Assembly (NCBI GenBank): GCA_028710695.1
Contig: JAQTTP010000001.1
Location: 90,001 to 122,000, forward strand
Direction of reading: 5' to 3'
Origin: Candidatus Iainarchaeum sp.
GTDB taxonomy: Archaea > Iainarchaeota > Iainarchaeia > Iainarchaeales > 0-14-0-20-30-16
Length of the DNA stretch: 32,000 nt
Part shown: one piece after another, positions 2,126 to 23,673 of the stretch
Layout of the letters: every line of letters starts with the position of its first letter
How positions within the stretch are numbered: position 1 is the stretch's first letter
The notes under the pieces: model-generated
Databases searched by the model: none
What the model was told of the DNA's origin: nothing
What the model saw: only the letters and a program-made list of their open reading frames with translations
Position numbers and translations under genes: made by a program

Positions 2126-2262
2126 TTTTAGGCCCCCAAATATAATATTGCTATATAACAATAAAAAAAGGTATTTAAATACTTTTCTAGGATTTTACCT
2201 AAAAATAACAGAAACTTATAAAAATAAGTATTCCTTATATATTTAGAAAATCAGGTGTTGTA

Positions 2263-2442
2263 ATGATCAAATTCCTCAAAGATGTAAAAGGACAAGCATC
2301 AATAGAGATTCTTATTGGGGTAGTAATAGTAATTGTTATTGCAACGCTAGTTGGGTTATTTTTGAAAAAAAGCCTGACAAAACCGCAAGAACAGGGTGCG
2401 GATTTAATAGACAAAGTTTCTGAAGATATTGGGGGTAAGTAA
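2263..2442 (+). CDS. class III signal peptide pilin-like protein (59 aa), not in the supplied ORF track
   Basis: My own translation: MIKFLKDVKG|QASIEILIGVVIVIVIATLVGLFLKKSLTKPQEQGADLIDKVSEDIGGK*. It has a basic n-region ending in KG, Gln at +1, Glu at +5 and a ~20-aa hydrophobic helix. AGGTG lies 6 nt upstream of the ATG. The stop (2440-2442) sits 1 nt before the next pilin ATG. Confidence 0.72.
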   Translation: MIKFLKDVKGQASIEILIGVVIVIVIATLVGLFLKKSLTKPQEQGADLIDKVSEDIGGK

Positions 2443-2443
2443 T

Positions 2444-2641
2444 ATGTTCAAATTTTTAAAGGATAAGAAAGGTCAAGGTGCTTTAGAGTACATTTTAATC
2501 ATAGGTGCAGCAGTTCTAATTGCAGCAATAGTAATTGCAATTCTTGTAAGTGCCGGCCGATCAGGAAAAGACGATGCAAATAGTGCATTAAGCGAACAAC
2601 AAAAAGATTTTAACGAATTAAAAAATATTGCAAATGAGTGA
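2444..2641 (+). CDS. class III signal peptide pilin-like protein (65 aa)
   Basis: The track ORF starts at 2429; the ATG at 2444 gives MFKFLKDKKG|QGALEYILIIGAAVLIAAIVIAILV. GGGGGT lies 7 nt upstream. KGQ..LEY followed by a hydrophobic helix is the archaeal type IV pilin / class III signal consensus. Confidence 0.85.
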   Translation: MFKFLKDKKGQGALEYILIIGAAVLIAAIVIAILVSAGRSGKDDANSALSEQQKDFNELKNIANE

Positions 2642-2646
2642 TATCT

Positions 2647-2841
2647 ATGAGTTTTCTTAAAGATACAAAAGGACAAGGTGCTCTTGAGTACCTTTTAATT
2701 ATTGGTGCGGCAATTCTTTTGGCAGCAATAGTAATTGGGGTTTTAATAAAAACATCCGGCAACGCAAAAGATGACATAAACGACACCCAGCAAGTATATG
2801 ATGACCAAATAAATAAGGCGAAGACAGATTTTAATTTGTAA
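2647..2841 (+). CDS. class III signal peptide pilin-like protein (64 aa)
   Basis: The track start at 2638 is GTG. The ATG at 2647 gives MSFLKDTKG|QGALEYLLIIGAAILLAAIVIGVLI, with GAGTGA 6 nt upstream. Close paralogue of the 2444-2641 product. Confidence 0.85.
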   Translation: MSFLKDTKGQGALEYLLIIGAAILLAAIVIGVLIKTSGNAKDDINDTQQVYDDQINKAKTDFNL

Positions 2842-2851
2842 AGGCGAAGAC

Positions 2852-3034
2852 ATGAAATTTATAAGTGATAAGAAGGGACAGATCTCCTTTGAGTACCTTC
2901 TTACTATTGTTTTTGCTGTTCTTCTTGTAATTGCAGTAACATTATTTGTTCTTCAGCTGAGGAAAATAGGCCAAGTTGCCCAGACAAAGATAGAGAATTA
3001 TAAGATTGAGTTCTTTAAGAAAACCTTCGAATAG
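2852..3034 (+). CDS. class III signal peptide pilin-like protein (60 aa)
   Basis: MKFISDKKG|QISFEYLLTIVFAVLLVIAVTLFVL. Same KG|Q...E(+5) geometry as the neighbours, with a divergent C-terminal half. Confidence 0.82.
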   Translation: MKFISDKKGQISFEYLLTIVFAVLLVIAVTLFVLQLRKIGQVAQTKIENYKIEFFKKTFE

Positions 3035-3064
3035 TTTTTTATTCTCTCTTTTTCTATTTCTATT

Positions 3065-4141
3065 ATGTTTTTGGATCTTGTATTTTCCTATTTGCCATAC
3101 ATTTTAGTATTTATTGCCTTGGCAATTGGATCTTATACTGATTTAAAGACAAGAGACCTACATAATTGGCTTACCTTTGGGCTGATTATACTTGGAATCT
3201 TATTTTGGATTGCTAAAAGTATCTATGTTGGACAGTTTTTGTATTGGCCTTTGCTTATTGGCTTGATTACCTTTTTTGTATGCTACTTGCTTTGGTATTT
3301 TGCAGTATTTGCTGGCGGAGATGCAAAACTTATTGCAGGCGTTGCATTTTGTATCCCTTATCAGGATTTTTCAATCTTTTTTAACGGCGGAATAAACCCA
3401 TATTTTATTCCCTTATTTTTTGTTCTTGGTGTCTTTATAGTATTCCCTTTGGGCTTTTTCTTGGCTCTAAAGAGAATAATTGTAAATAAGCATTACAAAA
3501 TAATTCTGCGTGACCTAGTCAAGAAGCTCCCGGGATACTTAGAAGTTGCAGTTACTCTTGTTGGTTTGTATTATATATTTTCTTTATTGCACATCCCTAC
3601 AATTTTTGCCCTGTTGTCTTTCTTATTATTCAAAATAAATTGGAAGATACGTTTGCCAATAGCAATAATTGTTTTTGCAATATCGATTTATTTGAATCCT
3701 TTACGCCTGGTAGATGTTTTGATTTATGTCCTGATTTCAGTAATCTTCTTTTCTTTTATAAAGTTGTTTGGATTTGTAAGGTCTAAAGAGTTTGCAGATT
3801 TGAAGAAAGTAAGTAAGCTAAAGGAAGGAGACATACTTTATAGTTCAATTTACATAAAGGATAATGCCCTTGTAAAAAAACCAACAATAAAAGATATGTT
3901 TAAAAATATCAAAAATAAAGATATATTGCAAAAAACATTTGAATCTATGAAGAGCAAGAATTATGATACAGTAATTCAAACAAGGCCTGCTGGGCTTTAT
4001 AACGAAGAAATAGTAGTGTTGAAAAAATTACAAAAAGACAAGGTAATTCCTGCAGAGATTTATGTGAAACAGAGCGTTCCTTTAACACCTGCTTTGTTTT
4101 TAAGTTATATTGTGTTATTATTTATCGGTGGATTATTATGA
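3065..4141 (+). CDS. A24-family prepilin/preflagellin peptidase (EppA/PibD/FlaK-like)
   Basis: 358-aa polytopic membrane protein. The first catalytic Asp context is SYTDLKTRDL; the second is in FAGGDAKLIAGVA (GxGD-type aspartyl protease motif). A ~110-aa soluble segment plus a terminal TM follow the core. The stop overlaps the next ATG (ATGA at 4138-4141). Confidence 0.9.
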   Translation: MFLDLVFSYLPYILVFIALAIGSYTDLKTRDLHNWLTFGLIILGILFWIAKSIYVGQFLYWPLLIGLITFFVCYLLWYFAVFAGGDAKLIAGVAFCIPYQDFSIFFNGGINPYFIPLFFVLGVFIVFPLGFFLALKRIIVNKHYKIILRDLVKKLPGYLEVAVTLVGLYYIFSLLHIPTIFALLSFLLFKINWKIRLPIAIIVFAISIYLNPLRLVDVLIYVLISVIFFSFIKLFGFVRSKEFADLKKVSKLKEGDILYSSIYIKDNALVKKPTIKDMFKNIKNKDILQKTFESMKSKNYDTVIQTRPAGLYNEEIVVLKKLQKDKVIPAEIYVKQSVPLTPALFLSYIVLLFIGGLL

Positions 4142-16823: not shown

Positions 16824-16951
16824 GACATGACCCCCGTTTCAATAGAATAGTTATATCTAATATAAACTATAACATTTATATATTAATTCAAGTTATTTAT
16901 AATGTTTGTTATGTTTACAGTCTGGTCTTATTTATATCTCGGGTGAATGGC

Positions 16952-18565
16952 ATGGTGTTTGTAGATAATCTTTTCCAAAAGGATTCTAAAGAAAATAAAG
17001 AAGAAAAAGAAGCGGCGCAAGAAAAAGAAGAAACAAAAGAACGAACTGCGCGACCGACTAGTACTAGCCCATCCACTACAGACGCCCTTATACCTACTGA
17101 ACTAAGTTTTGAAGATTTAGAAAACGCAAACAAAAAAATGATTGCTTCTTATGGTGAAGTGAAAATATACAAAGTTGAAGGTCACCCAATATTACACTAT
17201 GAAGTGCCAACTCCTAAAGCATCAAGTGGAGAACAGCTAGTAATCAACACAATAAAAGAAGCGGCAACAAGAATCATTAACGTTGCGCCTTACAAAATAA
17301 GAGATGAACAACAGAGAAGAAATGTATACTTCCAAAAAGTAATGGAAATCATCTCCTCGTCCCCAGAATTAAAAATCCCTGAAGGAAAGCAAAAGTTTTA
17401 TGCCAATGCAGTTGTAACTGAGATGGTTGGATTTGGAATTATTGACTCTTTGTTAAAAGATGACGGATTAGAAGAGATAATGATAATTGGTCCAAAGAAG
17501 CCAGTTTATGTTTTCCACAGAGAATACGAAATAATGACAACAAACATCGTATTTTATGAAGATAAAGATATAATTGATTTGATCTCCAGAATTGCGAGAT
17601 ACACAGGAAGAAGAATAGATTATTCACAACCATTATTAGATGCAAGATTAAGTGATGGATCAAGAATAAATGCAACTATTCCACCAGTTTCTGTTGCGGG
17701 TTCAACATTGACGATAAGAAAGTTTAGAAAAGAGCCTTATACTATAATAGATTTGATAAACAACGGCACAATAGATCTACAAACTGCCGCATTCTTGTGG
17801 CTTTGTGTTGATGGTATGGATGTAAAGCCAGCAAACATTTTAATAGCGGGAGGAACAGGATCAGGAAAAACAACAACCCTGAATGTTCTCTCAAGTTTTA
17901 TTCCATCAAGAGAAAGAATAATTACTATTGAAGACACCGCAGAATTAAACTTGCCTTTAACTCATTGGATAAGATTAGAAGCCCGACCACCCGGAATTGA
18001 AGGTACAGGAGAAATAACTTTAGATATTTTAACAAAAAATGCATTGAGAATGCGACCTGACAGAGTAATTGTTGGTGAAGTAAGGCATAGCGAAGCTTTG
18101 GCTTTATTTACTGCAATGAACACGGGTCACGATGGTTGTATGGGTACAGTACACGCGAACTCTGCCCAAGAAACAATTGTAAGAGTTACTTCTCCACCAA
18201 TGGATGTTCCACAAGTTATGCTTTCTGGTTTAGATATGATTCTTGTTCAACAAAGAATACACGATAAAAGAAAAGGAACAATAAGAAGAATCACCGAGAT
18301 TGCAGAAGTAAGTGGAGTGTTAGAAAGAAATACTCAAACACAAAAAATTTATGAATGGGATCCGAAAGATGACAAATTAGTTGATACTTCAGTTCCATCA
18401 AGATATTTGAAAAAAGTTGCAACATTTTCAGGAAAAACAATGGCACAAGTTACAAAGGAAATTTCAACAAGAGCACAATTCTTGAAAAGATTATTGGATA
18501 AAAACATAAAATCTCAGATAGAATTATCGCAAGAGATACAAAAATATTATGATTTAGAAGAATAA
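16952..18565 (+). CDS. type IV pilus/archaellum-family assembly ATPase (FlaI/TadA/VirB11-like, T2SSE family)
   Basis: The track start at 16943 is GTG; ATG at 16952. Walker A GGTGSGKTT, Asp box IITIEDTAEL, Walker B RPDRVIVGEVR, His box TGHDGCMGTVHANS. The N-terminal ~55 aa are low-complexity (KENKEEKEAAQEKEETKERTARPTSTSPSTT). Confidence 0.92.
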   Translation: MVFVDNLFQKDSKENKEEKEAAQEKEETKERTARPTSTSPSTTDALIPTELSFEDLENANKKMIASYGEVKIYKVEGHPILHYEVPTPKASSGEQLVINTIKEAATRIINVAPYKIRDEQQRRNVYFQKVMEIISSSPELKIPEGKQKFYANAVVTEMVGFGIIDSLLKDDGLEEIMIIGPKKPVYVFHREYEIMTTNIVFYEDKDIIDLISRIARYTGRRIDYSQPLLDARLSDGSRINATIPPVSVAGSTLTIRKFRKEPYTIIDLINNGTIDLQTAAFLWLCVDGMDVKPANILIAGGTGSGKTTTLNVLSSFIPSRERIITIEDTAELNLPLTHWIRLEARPPGIEGTGEITLDILTKNALRMRPDRVIVGEVRHSEALALFTAMNTGHDGCMGTVHANSAQETIVRVTSPPMDVPQVMLSGLDMILVQQRIHDKRKGTIRRITEIAEVSGVLERNTQTQKIYEWDPKDDKLVDTSVPSRYLKKVATFSGKTMAQVTKEISTRAQFLKRLLDKNIKSQIELSQEIQKYYDLEE

Positions 18566-18659
18566 TGGCTCAAAAATGATTTGTGATATTTATGAGCAAG
18601 TTAATGATTTGTTGCAAAGCGGCAAAAATCAAAACAGGCTCACAAAAATGTGATTTATT

Positions 18660-19766
18660 ATGAGTTTTGATCTTAACGACAAGATGCAGGAGAAGGTAGA
18701 CCTAAAACAAGTGGAGTCTATTGTCGAAAATATCAAACGTAAGTATGAAGAAAAAGGCTTGTCAAATGATTTAGAATCATTGCGTCTGCAAGAATTAAGG
18801 TCAATAATTTCAGAAGGAAAAAGATCACAAATTGAAGTTCAAAAACCAGAAGAATTATCTGCAGATTACAACAAAGGTGTAAAGCTGATTGGGAAAATTT
18901 ATAACTCATTTTCATCATTCTTTTCATTATTTTCAAAAAGAATATTATCTATTTTGCCAGGTAGAAATGAATTAAGCATGGACTTAGACAGTGCAAACAT
19001 AAATTACAGCACAGCACAATATCTTGCAATAACTTCTGTTATATCATTAATATTAACAATAATAATTACTGCGGTAGCTGCAGCTTTGTTTGCAGTAATA
19101 GAAATTCCACAATACTATTTAGTATTAGTCTTTTTTGTGGCCATGTTTTTAACTGCGGGAATAGTTCTGAAATATCCTTCCATTGTTGCAGCCGATCGTG
19201 CAAAAAAAATAGATGCAGAACTTCCATTTGCATTGCGACACATGGCAACTGAGCTTCGTGCAGGAATAGGTTTGTATAGAGTTTTACAAACGATCGCTAT
19301 TGGAGAATATGGCTATTTATCAGAAGAAATGGCGCGAGTTATAAATGAAGTTGAACAAGGTGCAGATACAAAAGATGCATTAAAAAATTTAGCATATAGA
19401 ACAAGATCTTTTTCATTAAGAAATACTTTAAACCATATTTTGCGTGCATTAAAATCTGGTGGAAACCTTTCTGAAGTTTTGAATAATACAGCAAATGATG
19501 TTTCATTTGAAATCAGATTGAACTTGGAATCATTTTCAGGAAAAATGAATTTCATTGGAGTAATTTATATTTTTATTGGAATTGTAATCCCTGTAATGTT
19601 GGCAATTTTAGGAACAATTAGAAATATTCCTTTGGGCGGCGGCGTATCTTTATTTGCCTCTTTGCCATTGACGCCAACAATGATAATTTTATTGTATGTT
19701 GTAATTCTTCCAATTTGTTTGATTGGATTGGTAATGTATATTAGAAAAATTAGGCCTACATATTAA
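18660..19766 (+). CDS. pilus platform membrane protein, single T2SSF domain (TadB/FlaJ-like)
   Basis: 368 aa. Cytoplasmic N-terminal region, TMs, then the T2SSF-type segment AELPFALRHMATELRAGIGLYRVLQTIA...ALKNLA, then C-terminal TMs. Confidence 0.8.
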   Translation: MSFDLNDKMQEKVDLKQVESIVENIKRKYEEKGLSNDLESLRLQELRSIISEGKRSQIEVQKPEELSADYNKGVKLIGKIYNSFSSFFSLFSKRILSILPGRNELSMDLDSANINYSTAQYLAITSVISLILTIIITAVAAALFAVIEIPQYYLVLVFFVAMFLTAGIVLKYPSIVAADRAKKIDAELPFALRHMATELRAGIGLYRVLQTIAIGEYGYLSEEMARVINEVEQGADTKDALKNLAYRTRSFSLRNTLNHILRALKSGGNLSEVLNNTANDVSFEIRLNLESFSGKMNFIGVIYIFIGIVIPVMLAILGTIRNIPLGGGVSLFASLPLTPTMIILLYVVILPICLIGLVMYIRKIRPTY

Positions 19767-19790
19767 GGTTAGTCCACAAATGGTGTTGCT

Positions 19791-20696
19791 ATGAGTAATT
19801 TGATGTTGAAGTACAAGAAAATATTGGAGAGAAACAAAATAAAACTTCATCCTCTTGTGTGGATTGCCATTGCAGTATTAATTGGTATTGTTGGAGCAGT
19901 TTTAATTGCCTTGCTTGTTGGAAATTATGTTTTTGCTGCTGTGACTTTGATTGCCATTGCAGATATAATAATTGGTCTGCCTATTTATGTTGAAAACAAA
20001 AGAACCGCCCAGATTGAAAAGTTTTTTCCCTCTGCATTAAGAGAAATGAGCGATGTTTTGAAGAGCGGCGGAACTTACGAATATGCTTTAAGAGAAGTGT
20101 CAATGATCGATTACGGCCCATTGACTAAAGAGCTACAAAAAGTATTAAGGCGATTAGAAGATGGTGCAAACTTTGAAGATGCCTTGGCGTCTATAAACGA
20201 AAATGTGGATTCTTCATTGGTAAGAAAAGTTATTACAATTATTTTGGACTCTGTTAGAGCTGGAGCGGGTTTAGCAGATGTTTTAGATGAGATTGCAGAA
20301 GATGCAAGAAACCTGTATAAATTACAGCAAGAAAGAAGAGCAAAGACTACAATGCAAGTTTTATTTATTGCTGCGGCCGGATCGGTAATTGCGCCAGCAA
20401 TATTTGGGTTAGTAAATACTTTAAGTTCGTTTTTAGTGGAGGTCTCTACAAGCACAGGGATTGTGGAATCAGTTAAAGAGATCGCTGCTGCTGTTGCCGC
20501 CGGAGACATAATTTATAATGTATTATTATTCTACTTATTTTTTGAATCCTTAATTTCAAGTGTAATAATTGCTTATATGAGGGATAGAACCGCATCAAAA
20601 GCCTTGCTTTACTTCCCAATATTCGTATTTGTTGGATTCATAATATTCTTCCTAGCAAAGTATGCCACAAAAGTAATGCTTGCAGGTATGATTTAA
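19791..20696 (+). CDS. pilus platform membrane protein, single T2SSF domain (TadC/FlaJ-like)
   Basis: 301 aa. FFPSALREMSDVLKSGGTYEYALREVS...ALASIN flanked by TM segments. Starts 24 nt after the preceding platform gene. Confidence 0.78.
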   Translation: MSNLMLKYKKILERNKIKLHPLVWIAIAVLIGIVGAVLIALLVGNYVFAAVTLIAIADIIIGLPIYVENKRTAQIEKFFPSALREMSDVLKSGGTYEYALREVSMIDYGPLTKELQKVLRRLEDGANFEDALASINENVDSSLVRKVITIILDSVRAGAGLADVLDEIAEDARNLYKLQQERRAKTTMQVLFIAAAGSVIAPAIFGLVNTLSSFLVEVSTSTGIVESVKEIAAAVAAGDIIYNVLLFYLFFESLISSVIIAYMRDRTASKALLYFPIFVFVGFIIFFLAKYATKVMLAGMI

Positions 20697-20757
20697 ACAA
20701 ACTTGGATATGTAGAACCGCAAAAGAAATATATATTGTCTATATCCAATATAATTAC

Positions 20758-22110
20758 ATGCCTTCGATTGTGAAGAACTGGCCTTTATATTTTAAAGACA
20801 TGCTAATTGTAAAAAATACCTCGCACAATGTTGGTGTTGCCACTCTTTGGTCTAAGCCCGAATTTTTTGAGAAATTAAATTGTAATACTATCGGAACCTG
20901 CTATTCTATTGAAGGGATAAAATATATCTTGAGAAACCTTCTTGGAAATACAAATATTCGATATTTAGTTTTATGTGGTACTGATTTATCAAAAACCGGA
21001 GAGTCGCTAAAAGAAATATTTGCGGGAAAATACAATATAGTAATATCTGATTTTTCTTTTGAAGATCTAGAAAGAATTACAACAAATGTTGAGCTTGTGG
21101 ATATGATTGAGAATATAAATCCTCAGGAAGTGCAAGAAAAAATAAATTCTCTTTCTGTAAAACAAGCATATGGTGAAGCAAAAGAGATAATAGTAAAAGA
21201 AAAAACCCATTCTAAAAAACCAAGTGAAAAGACAGGATTTATAATACGTGAAAAAAACATTGCTGATGCCTGGCTAAGTGCCTTGAAATTAATAAAAGAA
21301 TATGGTATTGAGAAAAAAACAGCATACGGAATAGGTTCTTTGGAAATAATGAATTTAGTTACTGTTACAAATGAAATGGAAGAAAGGCACACACCTAAAT
21401 TTTTGGGAGTAACAAAAAAGCAAATAAAAGATTATGAAGACCAAATTTGTACCGGAAAACAAATAAAATCTGTAGAATACACTTATGGCCAGGGACTTTG
21501 TAAGTATTTCATGTATGACCAAATAAAATGGGCAATAAATCAGTTGAAAACTGATAAAGATAGAAGACGAATTTTTTTAACTCTTTGGGATCCACATACT
21601 GACAAAGATTCTTCTTTGCCGCCTTGTTTGGACTCAATACAATTTTTAGTACAAAATAATGTTCTTTATATGACTGCTTATTTTAGATCTCATGATATTT
21701 TTGGTGCCTATCCCTTGAATATATTTGGACTTAGAAAAATGCAAGAAATAGTTGCAAAAGAAGCAGGTTTAGATGTTGGAGAACTAACTACAATAAGCTG
21801 TTCTGCGCATATGTATTATAATGATCTTCCGGCAGTAGAAGAAATTTTGAAATGGAATTATGATTTAAAATGTATTCCTGATCCACGAGGATATTTTTTC
21901 ATAGAAGTAAGAGATAAAATTTACGCAAAATATTTGAATAATAGTGGGATTCCTGTAAAAACATATTCTGGTGAAACTGCAAAGGAAGTATACAACCAAA
22001 TTCTATTAGATTTTGCGGTATCTCAATTATCACACGCCTTTTATTTGGGCGCAGAATTATCATCTGCAGAAGATGCATTAAAATCAGGAAAGAAGTTTGT
22101 TCAAAGGTAA
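20758..22110 (+). CDS. thyA: thymidylate synthase (ThyA type) with MtrA-like N-terminal and DUF4346-like C-terminal domains
   Basis: The ThyA core is DRRRIFLTLWDPHTD...LPPC(290)LDSIQFLV...YFRSHDIFGAYPLNIFG...SCSAHMYYND (compare E. coli RRIIVSAWN..APCHAFFQF..YQRSCDVFLGLPFNI..DTHLYSN). At 450 aa it is about twice the length of a bare ThyA core. Confidence 0.85.
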   Translation: MPSIVKNWPLYFKDMLIVKNTSHNVGVATLWSKPEFFEKLNCNTIGTCYSIEGIKYILRNLLGNTNIRYLVLCGTDLSKTGESLKEIFAGKYNIVISDFSFEDLERITTNVELVDMIENINPQEVQEKINSLSVKQAYGEAKEIIVKEKTHSKKPSEKTGFIIREKNIADAWLSALKLIKEYGIEKKTAYGIGSLEIMNLVTVTNEMEERHTPKFLGVTKKQIKDYEDQICTGKQIKSVEYTYGQGLCKYFMYDQIKWAINQLKTDKDRRRIFLTLWDPHTDKDSSLPPCLDSIQFLVQNNVLYMTAYFRSHDIFGAYPLNIFGLRKMQEIVAKEAGLDVGELTTISCSAHMYYNDLPAVEEILKWNYDLKCIPDPRGYFFIEVRDKIYAKYLNNSGIPVKTYSGETAKEVYNQILLDFAVSQLSHAFYLGAELSSAEDALKSGKKFVQR

Positions 22111-22125: not shown

Positions 22126-22168
22126 TTTACACAGTTATATATAAATAGAAAGTTTTTGTGTGATTGAT

Positions 22169-23059
22169 ATGGATAGATTGCCTAGGGATAAAAAGTCAAG
22201 AGAAAACTTAGAAAAAGTTAGAAACTTAAGTAACAAATTTTTAAATGAATTTAATGTGTTAGAAAAAGAAGAAAAAAAGGAAACAAAAGAAAATTCTAAT
22301 AAACTTAAAAAAGAACTAAGAAAATTAAACAAAAGAATATCTGAAAAGAATAAAAAGCATATGAAATCTGTAGAAACTGGAAAGAAAGAGGTAAGCAAAA
22401 CAAAAAAGCTTTTGACAAAAAACGAGAAAAGATTAAAAGCAAAAAATAAGAAAATGTATATTGTTGCGGCAAAGAAAAAGGAAGCAGAAAAAACATTGCA
22501 CGAAACAAAGCTTACAATAAAAGATCTTGAACAATTATTAAAGCAAAAAGATGATACAATACATCATTTGAAGCACAAGTTGGAATATGACTCACACATA
22601 GAAACAACTCATCTGAAAGAAAGGGTTACAAATTTAGAACAAAAGCTTAAAGAGCACCAATTAGAGCTTGTAAAAAAAGATACAGTAATAGAACTATTAG
22701 AAAAACCAGAATTTGATTATTCTCAGTTAGTAAACTTTGATATCAGAAATATAAAAACAAGGCATGTAGGATATCCGGAAGTTGCTCAGCTTGAAGAGAT
22801 AACTTTTTCATTACAAAACATCATGGCAGAGCCAATAAAAGATTTGGTTTGTGATGTTGTTGTTGAGAATCCAAACAGAAGATTTGAAATGGACAACTTG
22901 CAAGTAAAAAATAAACTTAATGCTAAAGAAAAAATAATAAAAACAATACACCTTTACAAACATTTGAAAACCCGGGGTTTGTTTAAGGTAACAGTTTGGA
23001 TAAAACAAAAAGGTCAAAAGGTTGCGTTAGTTGAACAAAGCAAAACAATTAACATATAA
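22169..23059 (+). CDS. Lys-rich coiled-coil protein with a C-terminal beta-rich domain, unknown function
   Basis: The track start at 22160 is GTG; ATG at 22169. About 180 aa of K/E-rich heptad-like sequence (KKELRKLNKRISEKNKK...LEQKLKEHQLELVKK), then ~110 aa of non-repetitive sequence. Confidence 0.6.
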   Translation: MDRLPRDKKSRENLEKVRNLSNKFLNEFNVLEKEEKKETKENSNKLKKELRKLNKRISEKNKKHMKSVETGKKEVSKTKKLLTKNEKRLKAKNKKMYIVAAKKKEAEKTLHETKLTIKDLEQLLKQKDDTIHHLKHKLEYDSHIETTHLKERVTNLEQKLKEHQLELVKKDTVIELLEKPEFDYSQLVNFDIRNIKTRHVGYPEVAQLEEITFSLQNIMAEPIKDLVCDVVVENPNRRFEMDNLQVKNKLNAKEKIIKTIHLYKHLKTRGLFKVTVWIKQKGQKVALVEQSKTINI

Positions 23060-23082: not shown

Positions 23083-23673
23083 ATGGGTTACATAAAACAC
23101 GAGATATTACATATTTTTATTGCTTGGATAGTAATCAGTCTTGCTTTTGCGTGGCAAGGTTTTTCAAATTTTTCTGCATTTTACCTGAATCTCCCAATTG
23201 TATTATTGGCGGCAGGAACAGGATTTATAGTTCACGAGTTAAGCCACAAATTTGTTGCAATTCATTATGATGCAAAAGCGAGATTTGTTATGTGGCCTTA
23301 TGGGCTTGTATTTGCTGTGGCTTTGGCATTAATATCTGGCGGTGGGTTTGTATTTGCAGCACCTGGTGCAGTATATATTTGGGGTAAAGATTTATCTAGA
23401 AAAGAGAGCGGGATAATTTCTGTTGCTGGCCCGGTTTCAAATTTGGTTATTGCAATTCTTGTATTTGTTCTTAGTCTTATAATATTCCAATTTTATATAA
23501 GTCAATTTTTAGTTACTCTTTTTTATACAATTATAAGCGTTAACTTGTTTTTGGGGTTATTCAACTTATTGCCAATTCCGCCTTTGGATGGTTACAAAGT
23601 GTTAGTATGGAATAAGCCAGTTTGGGCGGTGTTGTTAGTAATATTCATTGCGGCCTTAATCTACTTTTGGTAA
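23083..23673 (+). CDS. site-2 protease family (M50) intramembrane metalloprotease
   Basis: 196-aa polytopic protein with HELSHKF (HExxH inside a TM) and NLLPIPPLDG (NxxPxxxLDG motif). Confidence 0.85.
   Translation: MGYIKHEILHIFIAWIVISLAFAWQGFSNFSAFYLNLPIVLLAAGTGFIVHELSHKFVAIHYDAKARFVMWPYGLVFAVALALISGGGFVFAAPGAVYIWGKDLSRKESGIISVAGPVSNLVIAILVFVLSLIIFQFYISQFLVTLFYTIISVNLFLGLFNLLPIPPLDGYKVLVWNKPVWAVLLVIFIAALIYFW

Follow-up and report, generated by a model that had tools for sequence, protein, structure and literature searches.

A putative three-domain thymidylate synthase of Candidatus Iainarchaeum and its homologues

The synthesis of thymidylate (deoxythymidine monophosphate, dTMP) is thought to run in two ways, one through ThyA, which is tied to dihydrofolate reductase (DHFR) and serine hydroxymethyltransferase (SHMT), and one through ThyX, which is tied to SHMT. 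Both enzymes are major drug targets and are used as markers of folate metabolism. This study concerns a gene in a stretch of 32,000 nucleotides from the tiny symbiotic archaeon Candidatus Iainarchaeum sp. (assembly GCA_028710695.1, contig JAQTTP010000001.1, positions 90,001 to 122,000; the whole stretch is called the window here). The gene encodes a protein, named TS3 here, in which a short ThyA core lies between an MtrA-like domain and a DUF4346 domain. We consider it fairly probable that TS3 is a genuine thymidylate synthase and that its extra MtrA-like/DUF4346 module holds a one-carbon cofactor.

The closest described systems each share a part of this protein. Canonical ThyA (EC 2.1.1.45, PF00303; E. 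coli, L. casei) has a homologous fold, and TS3 keeps its catalytic Cys, the phosphate-binding Arg and Ser, Asn177, His207/Tyr209, Tyr94 and Asp169, but lacks Arg21, the Trp80/Trp83 helix, residues 233-264 and the genomic partnership with DHFR and SHMT. The TIGR03283 family (represented by M. jannaschii MJ0757) shares with TS3 its catalytic residues and its short ThyA fold, in which that helix and the C-terminal tail are likewise missing; however, it is a stand-alone protein of ~200 residues, whereas the TS3 core is embedded between two domains in a protein of 450 residues. The bifunctional DHFR-TS enzymes of protozoa and plants, which are the top Foldseek matches of TS3 via their thymidylate synthase half, also fuse a thymidylate synthase permanently to a cofactor-handling partner (a predicted role in TS3). 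With no PF00186 match in TS3, its partner is not a DHFR, and the proteins are arranged differently (root-mean-square deviation ~21 Å at full length). ThyX, like TS3, does without FolA, but its fold is unrelated and it still needs methylene-tetrahydrofolate. The nearest solved structures to the short core are ThyA-fold flavin-dependent hydroxylases of deoxycytidine monophosphate (dCMP), with a phage dCMP hydroxylase (9IQU, TM-score 0.80) and a flavin-dependent dCMP monooxygenase (9IQC, TM-score 0.74) as the best global Foldseek fits. These enzymes act on dCMP, whereas TS3 has an invariant uracil-selecting Asn, and identity is only 19-20%; they show that a short ThyA fold is able to use a non-folate cofactor.

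As for the flanks, MtrA, the corrinoid subunit of the methyl-tetrahydromethanopterin:coenzyme M methyltransferase (5LAA, 5L8X, 8Q3V), is homologous to the N-terminal domain of TS3, which keeps the WP motif, Gly57, Asn64 and a Ser or Thr at Thr53 but has no His84, Glu54, meander motif or membrane anchor. Uncharacterised two-domain MtrA-like/DUF4346 proteins (NF002128 type) have the same flanking domains in the same order without a ThyA core. Their MtrA domain is far nearer to Pfam MtrA than that of TS3 (127-141 bits versus 37) and likewise lacks His84 and Glu54.

Domains and conserved residues of TS3

The features of the gene are as follows; here and below, conservation is counted in 81 relatives from different species.

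20758..22110, + strand: whole gene for the putative three-domain thymidylate synthase (TS3), an open reading frame of 450 codons plus stop
20758..21195, + strand: MtrA-like Rossmann-type domain, residues 1-146 (Pfam MtrA match at residues 5-146)
20977..21003, + strand: loop G74-T-D-L-S-K-T-G-E82, by alignment the counterpart of the MtrA beta3-alpha3 loop
21196..21237, + strand: linker between the MtrA-like domain and the ThyA core, residues 147-160, modelled without secondary structure (AlphaFold2 predicted local distance difference test, pLDDT, 78-80)
21238..21858, + strand: short archaeal-type ThyA core, residues ~161-367 (TIGR03283, hhalign and Foldseek matches to the thymidylate synthase fold)
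21625..21627, + strand: TGT codon of the catalytic nucleophile Cys290 in L-P-P-C, equivalent to E. coli Cys146 and present in 81/81 relatives
21874..22107, + strand: DUF4346 domain, residues 373-450 (Pfam match; three beta-strands, then two helices)
20724..20735, + strand: A/T-rich TATA-like box aaatatatattg, ~23-34 nt 5' of the ATG, recognised by eye; a candidate archaeal promoter element

Pfam Thymidylat_synt (PF00303) matched residues 235-365 with 87.4 bits (cut-off 24.3), PterinBD-DUF4346 (PF14251) residues 375-449 with 67.4 bits (cut-off 29.6) and MtrA (PF04208) residues 5-146 with 36.9 bits (cut-off 25). The best NCBIfam model for the core was the methanogen-type ThyA TIGR03283 (161.5 bits, residues 162-358), whose equivalog cut-off of 174.55 was narrowly missed. 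A preliminary description of the gene had placed a ThyA core at residues ~160-365, with Cys290 encoded at nt 21625-21627, between an MtrA-like N-terminus and a DUF4346-like C-terminus at ~373-450. All of these assignments stand: both flanks score above their curated cut-offs, and the codon at that position is TGT. An AlphaFold2 model of the whole protein, built with 71 homologues, had a mean pLDDT of 92.9 and a predicted TM-score of 0.85, and a defined packing of the three domains is confidently predicted. A sigma-70 scan around the start of the gene gave only background-level signals.

The core aligned with canonical ThyA in hhalign with 99.9% probability. In this alignment E. coli Tyr94 corresponds to Y243 of TS3, Arg126 and Arg127 to R270 and R271, Cys146 to C290, Arg166 to R310, Ser167 to S311, Asp169 to D313, Asn177 to N321, His207 to H351 and Tyr209 to Y353. 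These equivalents of the catalytic residues and of those that bind deoxyuridine monophosphate (dUMP) are found in 81/81 relatives, except R270 (79/81) and R271 (71/81). Because Asn at the Asn177 position selects uracil, the substrate of TS3 should be dUMP. Arg21 of E. coli ThyA aligns with Ala189 and is not kept, the Trp80/Trp83 helix falls into an alignment gap, and residues 233-264 have no counterpart, DUF4346 beginning directly there. In ThyA, the Trp80/Trp83 helix and the C-terminal tail hold the folate tail and close the site. Four further core residues (E196, Y226, Y241 and D282) are newly invariant in the TS3 family. As judged by fold and catalytic residues, TS3 is a member of the ThyA superfamily without the canonical features for the folate tail and for partnership with DHFR.

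A profile of the N-terminal domain matched only MtrA structures in the PDB (5LAA, E = 4e-25). In MtrA the corrin rests on the loops after beta2, beta3 and alpha3 and is anchored mainly by His84, hydrogen-bonded to Glu54 and tied to the meander GAIP[FY]xEN, and the pocket for the nucleotide tail is formed by Asp17, Tyr18, Lys52, Thr53, Gly57, Val61 and Asn64 (PMC4915002). The loop of TS3 that corresponds to beta3-alpha3 is two residues shorter, and His84-Ile85 appears as an insertion relative to the family profile, which agrees with the preliminary description in that the corrinoid-ligand His is not conserved. A His anywhere in this loop was found in only 5/81 relatives, the family motif being G-x-D-[LI]-x-x-[ST]-G. 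Part of the tail pocket is kept, with Ser or Thr at Thr53 in 72/81 relatives, Gly57 in 81/81, Asn64 in 72/81, Leu, Ile or Met at Val61, and the WP motif; MtrA Tyr18 is changed to Leu in TS3. Near-invariant residues of the domain are W31, G46, Y49, G53, R59, N60, G74 and D76. Five of these (W31, Y49, D76, G53 and G74) map to the loop surface on which MtrA carries its corrin, which suggests that some planar cofactor probably binds there. By its residues, the domain is a homologue of MtrA that retains part of the tail pocket and is not a His-on corrinoid protein.

DUF4346 modelled alone gave a pLDDT of 95.8 with three strands and two helices, and no fold in the PDB matched this model with an E-value below 0.1 (best E = 0.13). 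Residues D375, G378, H426, G431, E433, A437, E438 and Q449 are invariant or nearly so. The Pfam label "PterinBD" is a name only and no evidence of pterin binding; a literature search found no paper behind the PterinBD/DUF4346 family name. A word-indexed search with residues 366-450 for partners of DUF4346 returned three close relatives only. TIGR00284, which matches residues 365-449, shows that elsewhere DUF4346 is fused to dihydropteroate-synthase-like proteins. In genome G038 DUF4346 is fused to a 4Fe-4S ferredoxin domain (L013:1420-2025, + strand, 201 aa). In G121 a stand-alone DUF4346 protein of 114 aa (L017:1573-1917, + strand) lies between a ferredoxin-like protein and a P-loop protein whose Cys-rich motif resembles the Fe-S motif of RnfB-type proteins. 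The ferredoxin fusion and the Fe-S neighbours are hints of an electron-transfer role for DUF4346.

Distribution and genomic company

A search of 5.8 billion proteins returned ~75 protein clusters (450-545 residues) that share all three Pfam domains with TS3, carry the source label "thymidylate synthase" and come from Nanobdellota archaea and Patescibacteria. In a one-genome-per-species collection at least 575 loci encode TS3 relatives. The relatives in the best 80 of these loci are full-length, and their hosts are Woese-, Pace-, Aenigmat-, Micr-, Nano- and Huberarchaeota on the archaeal side and many lineages of the Candidate Phyla Radiation (CPR) with some Chloroflexota on the bacterial side. 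Full-length relatives are also encoded on at least 125 IMG/VR viral contigs, many of them 50-200 kb long. Ribonucleotide reductase adjoins the TS3 relative in 38/80 viral loci examined (L103-L182), DHFR was found in 0/31 of the larger viral records that carry TS3 relatives, and some viral relatives have an insertion before the catalytic Cys. The recurrence of the architecture across clusters and loci rules out an artefact of assembly or gene fusion, a concern raised in the preliminary description. No paper describing the MtrA-like/ThyA/DUF4346 architecture was found in a literature search, and it goes unmentioned in surveys of thymidylate metabolism in archaea and CPR.

In seven two-domain relatives DUF4346 starts 20-35 residues past the end of the MtrA domain, and in TS3 the same linker is filled by ~210 residues of ThyA core. 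The short linker of the two-domain proteins suggests that the ThyA core sits inserted there, and it supports the earlier proposal of an insertion into an MtrA-like/DUF4346 protein. A relative in G064 (801 aa, L014:1091-3496, - strand) has the order MtrA-like - DUF4346 - ThyA-like. Repeated fusion of these parts in different topologies is strong evidence for a functional coupling of module and ThyA core, and the invariant residues of the module and the confident domain packing in the model point to it as well. The operon of the G064 relative also holds genes resembling dUTPase, a HAD hydrolase, a tandem deaminase-like protein and a ParB/Srx-like protein. Another relative, in G133 (438 aa, L016:1466-2782, - strand), keeps the MtrA-like and DUF4346 domains around a middle part without the P-C nucleophile and R-S-x-D, and going by these losses is a degenerate, probably non-catalytic version. 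It adjoins an apparent B12-binding radical-SAM gene.

The neighbouring genes in the 80 related loci were clustered. Thymidylate kinase was found next to TS3 in 18 of them, deaminases of deoxycytidine triphosphate (dCTP) or dCMP in 13 and dUTPase in 8, which suggests that the product of TS3 enters the pathway to deoxythymidine triphosphate (dTTP).

The folate cycle was compared in 151 sampled genomes of the phylum and in a second set of 50 further TS3 genomes across DPANN and CPR. These are mostly incomplete metagenome-assembled genomes (MAGs) that are related to one another, and the comparison is therefore given as counts rather than statistics and is indicative only. Among the 19 genomes of the phylum with an ordinary ThyA (~290 aa), 18 have a strong DHFR, always within 1 kb of ThyA, and 18 have SHMT. 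By comparison, the 15 genomes of the phylum with a full TS3 include only one with a strong DHFR (G147) and three with SHMT. In the second set a strong DHFR was present in nine genomes, in all nine beside a canonical full-length ThyA, and ThyX was present in 17. SHMT occurs in 20 of the 23 TS3 genomes that also have ThyA or ThyX, whereas TS3 mostly does without it. TS3 is the sole thymidylate synthase in the other 27 genomes, where the counts are 0/27 for strong DHFR, 7/27 for SHMT and 7/27 for FolD (the same seven), so that DHFR, SHMT and FolD are all absent from 20/27. In the single-contig genome G014 no SHMT, FolD or strong DHFR was found. Thus, within the same lineages, canonical ThyA keeps its recycling enzymes and TS3 does not, and this contrast is strong. 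The phyletic pattern backs the idea of a possible non-folate one-carbon carrier or salvaged pterin, which the preliminary description offered as speculation.

Several loci hold TS3 together with folate enzymes. The G180 operon has the order ThyA - DHFR::SHMT - TS3 - Tmk, in G153 TS3 lies beside ThyA-DHFR and in G183 it accompanies ThyX-SHMT. The DHFR next to TS3 in loci L025 and L073 was considered as a sign of folate dependence and rejected, as it belongs to the canonical ThyA just upstream, and the SHMT beside TS3 in L077 accompanies ThyX. In L073, from a Woesearchaeota MAG, an open reading frame of 605 aa (2191-4008, + strand) joins DHFR (residues 4-169) to SHMT (residues 175-575) and sits between the canonical ThyA and TS3, after which thymidylate kinase follows. 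Such a DHFR::SHMT fusion is unusual in itself. G147 is the only case of a DHFR ~1 kb from TS3 with no ordinary ThyA detected. There (L015:5628-8259, - strand) three genes on the strand of TS3 come after it, for a probable multi-pass membrane protein of 196 aa, a DUF4430 protein and a thioredoxin; in sister genomes of G147 this place is taken by SHMT and an ordinary ThyA. DUF4430 is a transcobalamin-like domain, and with its membrane partner it was found beside TS3 in 0/80 loci. Weak PF00186 matches in one genus turned out to be RibD_C-type reductase-like proteins and not DHFR proper. A second, very divergent ThyA-fold protein of 317 aa (78 bits to TIGR03283) is encoded in a CPR genome at L018:8844-9797 (- strand), and also in L074; in L018 it adjoins a dCMP deaminase, ~400 bp from TS3. 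Several other genomes have extra divergent ThyA-fold paralogues.

The genome from which the window comes (0.90 Mb in 27 contigs, 86% complete; the window is C3:90001-122000) has TS3 as its single ThyA-family gene. No ThyX or thymidine kinase was found in it, and neither were DHFR, SHMT, FolD, a Pterin_bind domain or a RibD_C-like reductase. TS3 is therefore the sole detectable dTMP route in this genome, and it is embedded in dTTP synthesis. In the dCMP deaminase of the genome (C11:6639-7766) a P-loop kinase-like domain is joined to a dCMP/cytidine deaminase domain. This same pairing adjoins the TS3 relative in L028, L073 and L083; its NCBIfam likeness to "anti-phage dCTP deaminase" is weak and sub-threshold. 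The ribonucleotide reductase (C23:56403-58613) is of the adenosylcobalamin-dependent class II (TIGR02504, 735 bits, cut-off 400), and its C-terminal Cys-rich region looks like a zinc ribbon. A class II enzyme means that a cobamide must be present in the cell and that deoxynucleotide synthesis is already cobamide-dependent. A protein of 449 aa on C26 has a B12-binding domain and looks like a radical-SAM enzyme.

Proposed mechanism and competing explanations

In the mechanism proposed here, the ThyA core would bind dUMP, Cys290 would attack C6, and C5 would accept a one-carbon unit to give dTMP. This methylation step is suggested by the fully conserved catalytic residues and by the dTMP-pathway neighbours of the relatives. 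The cofactor would be bound at the loop surface of the MtrA-like domain (W31, Y49 and D76) together with DUF4346, and the module, keeping it bound as a prosthetic group, would offer it to the ThyA site; a contact between module and active site forms part of this proposal. With a bound cofactor no free dihydrofolate would be released, and DHFR and SHMT/FolD would not be needed. As to the identity of the cofactor, there is a slight lean to a His-off corrinoid methyl relay, itself a tentative choice, over a pterin that is retained and recharged in place, which appears rather unlikely.

Several observations weigh against this mechanism or against its corrinoid form. The cobalt ligand His84 is missing, MtrA Glu54 aligns with I51 in a variable column, and TS3 has a 12-residue deletion at the meander GAIP[FY]xEN. 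Asp313 is invariant (81/81); its counterpart in ordinary ThyA forms a hydrogen bond with the pterin ring, and such a residue fits a pterin better than a corrin. No methyl-donor domain is recognisable in TS3, and S-adenosylmethionine (SAM) synthetase, whether of archaeal or bacterial type, was absent from five of six genomes tested (the window genome and four relatives), which weakens the case for SAM as the methyl donor; SAM and cobamide are presumably imported by the window organism. Also, the presence of ThyA or ThyX in 23/50 TS3 genomes, sometimes in the same operon (e.g. G180), means that some genomes have another synthase besides TS3, which could then serve a different purpose. To these points must be added the incomplete and related genomes behind the counts, and we know of no member of the TS3 family with known biochemistry.

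In the corrinoid-dependent form, a His-free cobamide would sit on the MtrA-like domain, methyl-Co(III) would give CH3+ to C5 of the Cys290-activated dUMP, and Co(I) would be remethylated by another donor, with no need for a folate redox cycle. Those relatives of the N-terminal domain that have been characterised are all corrinoid proteins (5LAA). Of the tail pocket, TS3 retains the WP motif, Thr53 (as Ser/Thr), Gly57 and Asn64, and its invariant W31, Y49 and D76 map to the corrin-bearing loops of MtrA. Methyl transfer predicts independence from DHFR, SHMT and FolD, and the cell needs a cobamide anyway for its ribonucleotide reductase. The fusion of DUF4346 to ferredoxin and its Fe-S neighbours resemble systems for reductive activation of corrinoids, and the DUF4430 gene that follows TS3 in G147, with its transcobalamin-like domain, points the same way, although no such pair was seen in the 80 loci. 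However, the main corrin anchor of MtrA is deleted from TS3, Glu54 is not conserved and the meander is absent, and the invariant Asp313 and the want of a methyl-donor domain and, in five of six genomes, of SAM synthetase also speak against a corrinoid, so that this form is only tentative. A self-recycling pterin enzyme, analogous to DHFR-TS, would account for Asp313 and for the full hydride-type catalytic set of ThyA. Here the methylene-tetrahydropterin would stay on the module, the dihydropterin would be re-reduced via ferredoxin or nicotinamide, and the one-carbon unit would be reloaded, e.g. from formaldehyde. The fusions of DUF4346 to dihydropteroate-synthase-like proteins (TIGR00284) and to 4Fe-4S ferredoxin link it to 7,8-dihydropterins and electron transfer, and a strong DHFR is absent from genomes that rely on TS3. 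This form is nonetheless somewhat unlikely, as two more activities (reduction and one-carbon loading) would have to fit into ~230 residues without a known redox-cofactor motif, a one-carbon source was not identified in genomes without SHMT and FolD, and DUF4346 has no solved relative to its fold and bears its pterin name as a label only.

TS3 could also be an ordinary folate-dependent ThyA in which the flanks replace the folate-tail elements or serve oligomerisation or regulation, with the folate recycled by the host or by non-orthologous enzymes that escape recognition. The core is clearly homologous to ThyA and has Asp313, and TS3 does occur with folate enzymes, in the operons of G180 and G183, beside ThyA-DHFR in G153 and 1 kb from DHFR in G147, while the weak RibD_C-type genes of one genus might act as DHFR. 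However, the DHFR of G180 and G153 belongs to the neighbouring canonical ThyA, and the RibD_C-like gene is absent from the window genome. In the same lineages ordinary ThyA comes with DHFR and SHMT in 18/19 genomes and with DHFR in 9/9, which indicates that the canonical chemistry needs the cycle, yet 20/27 TS3-only genomes lack DHFR, SHMT and FolD. Import of one reduced folate per thymine would, by our own estimate, amount to ~6 x 10^5 molecules per genome copy, and import of thymidine would be simpler. An ordinary ThyA is thus unlikely. Less probable again, and by some way, is that TS3 does not make dTMP but produces another C5-modified pyrimidine nucleotide, or acts on another substrate, with a non-folate cofactor, like the flavin-dependent dCMP hydroxylases of ThyA fold. 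Its best structural fits are indeed the dCMP hydroxylase 9IQU and the dCMP monooxygenase 9IQC, a second synthase is present in 23/50 genomes, and TS3 is common on the contigs of large phages, which often make modified bases. Against this, Asn321 is invariant, and its equivalent Asn177 selects uracil over cytosine; no gene lies next to TS3 more often than that for thymidylate kinase (18/80 loci), and TS3 is the sole gene of its family in 27/50 genomes and in the window genome, where no thymidine kinase was found.

Surroundings of the gene and implications

The base composition of TS3 matches that of the neighbouring genes, which rules out a horizontally acquired island. Directly upstream (window 16943-20696, + strand) lies a set of genes like those of type IV pili or archaella, with one T2SSE ATPase and two T2SSF membrane proteins. 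Downstream are a Lys/Glu-rich coiled-coil protein (22160-23059) and a minimal M50 site-2 protease (23083-23673), and the window also carries RFC, an ATP-dependent DNA ligase, FttA and RtcA, which mark it as archaeal. The pilus-like genes, the coiled-coil protein, the protease and the DNA ligase are uninformative as a clue to the function of TS3.

TS3 occurs in hundreds of species of ultra-small archaea and bacteria and in large phages, typically in genomes without a recognisable folate cycle. It is thus a widespread, so far undescribed form of a known enzyme, and there is a realistic chance that its cofactor chemistry is new. It is possible, if doubtful, that it represents a third dTMP route, in which the one-carbon unit comes to a ThyA-fold enzyme from a cofactor on its own module, perhaps a His-free methyl-donating cobamide, without DHFR or a folate pool fed by serine or formate, and that this route is the main dTMP source in many DPANN and CPR organisms and their phages. 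If TS3 is self-sufficient, metabolic reconstructions of DPANN and CPR symbionts, which are now read as folate-dependent or as thymidine auxotrophs, would change, the MtrA-like/DUF4346 module would gain its first function, and new cofactor chemistry on the ThyA scaffold might emerge.

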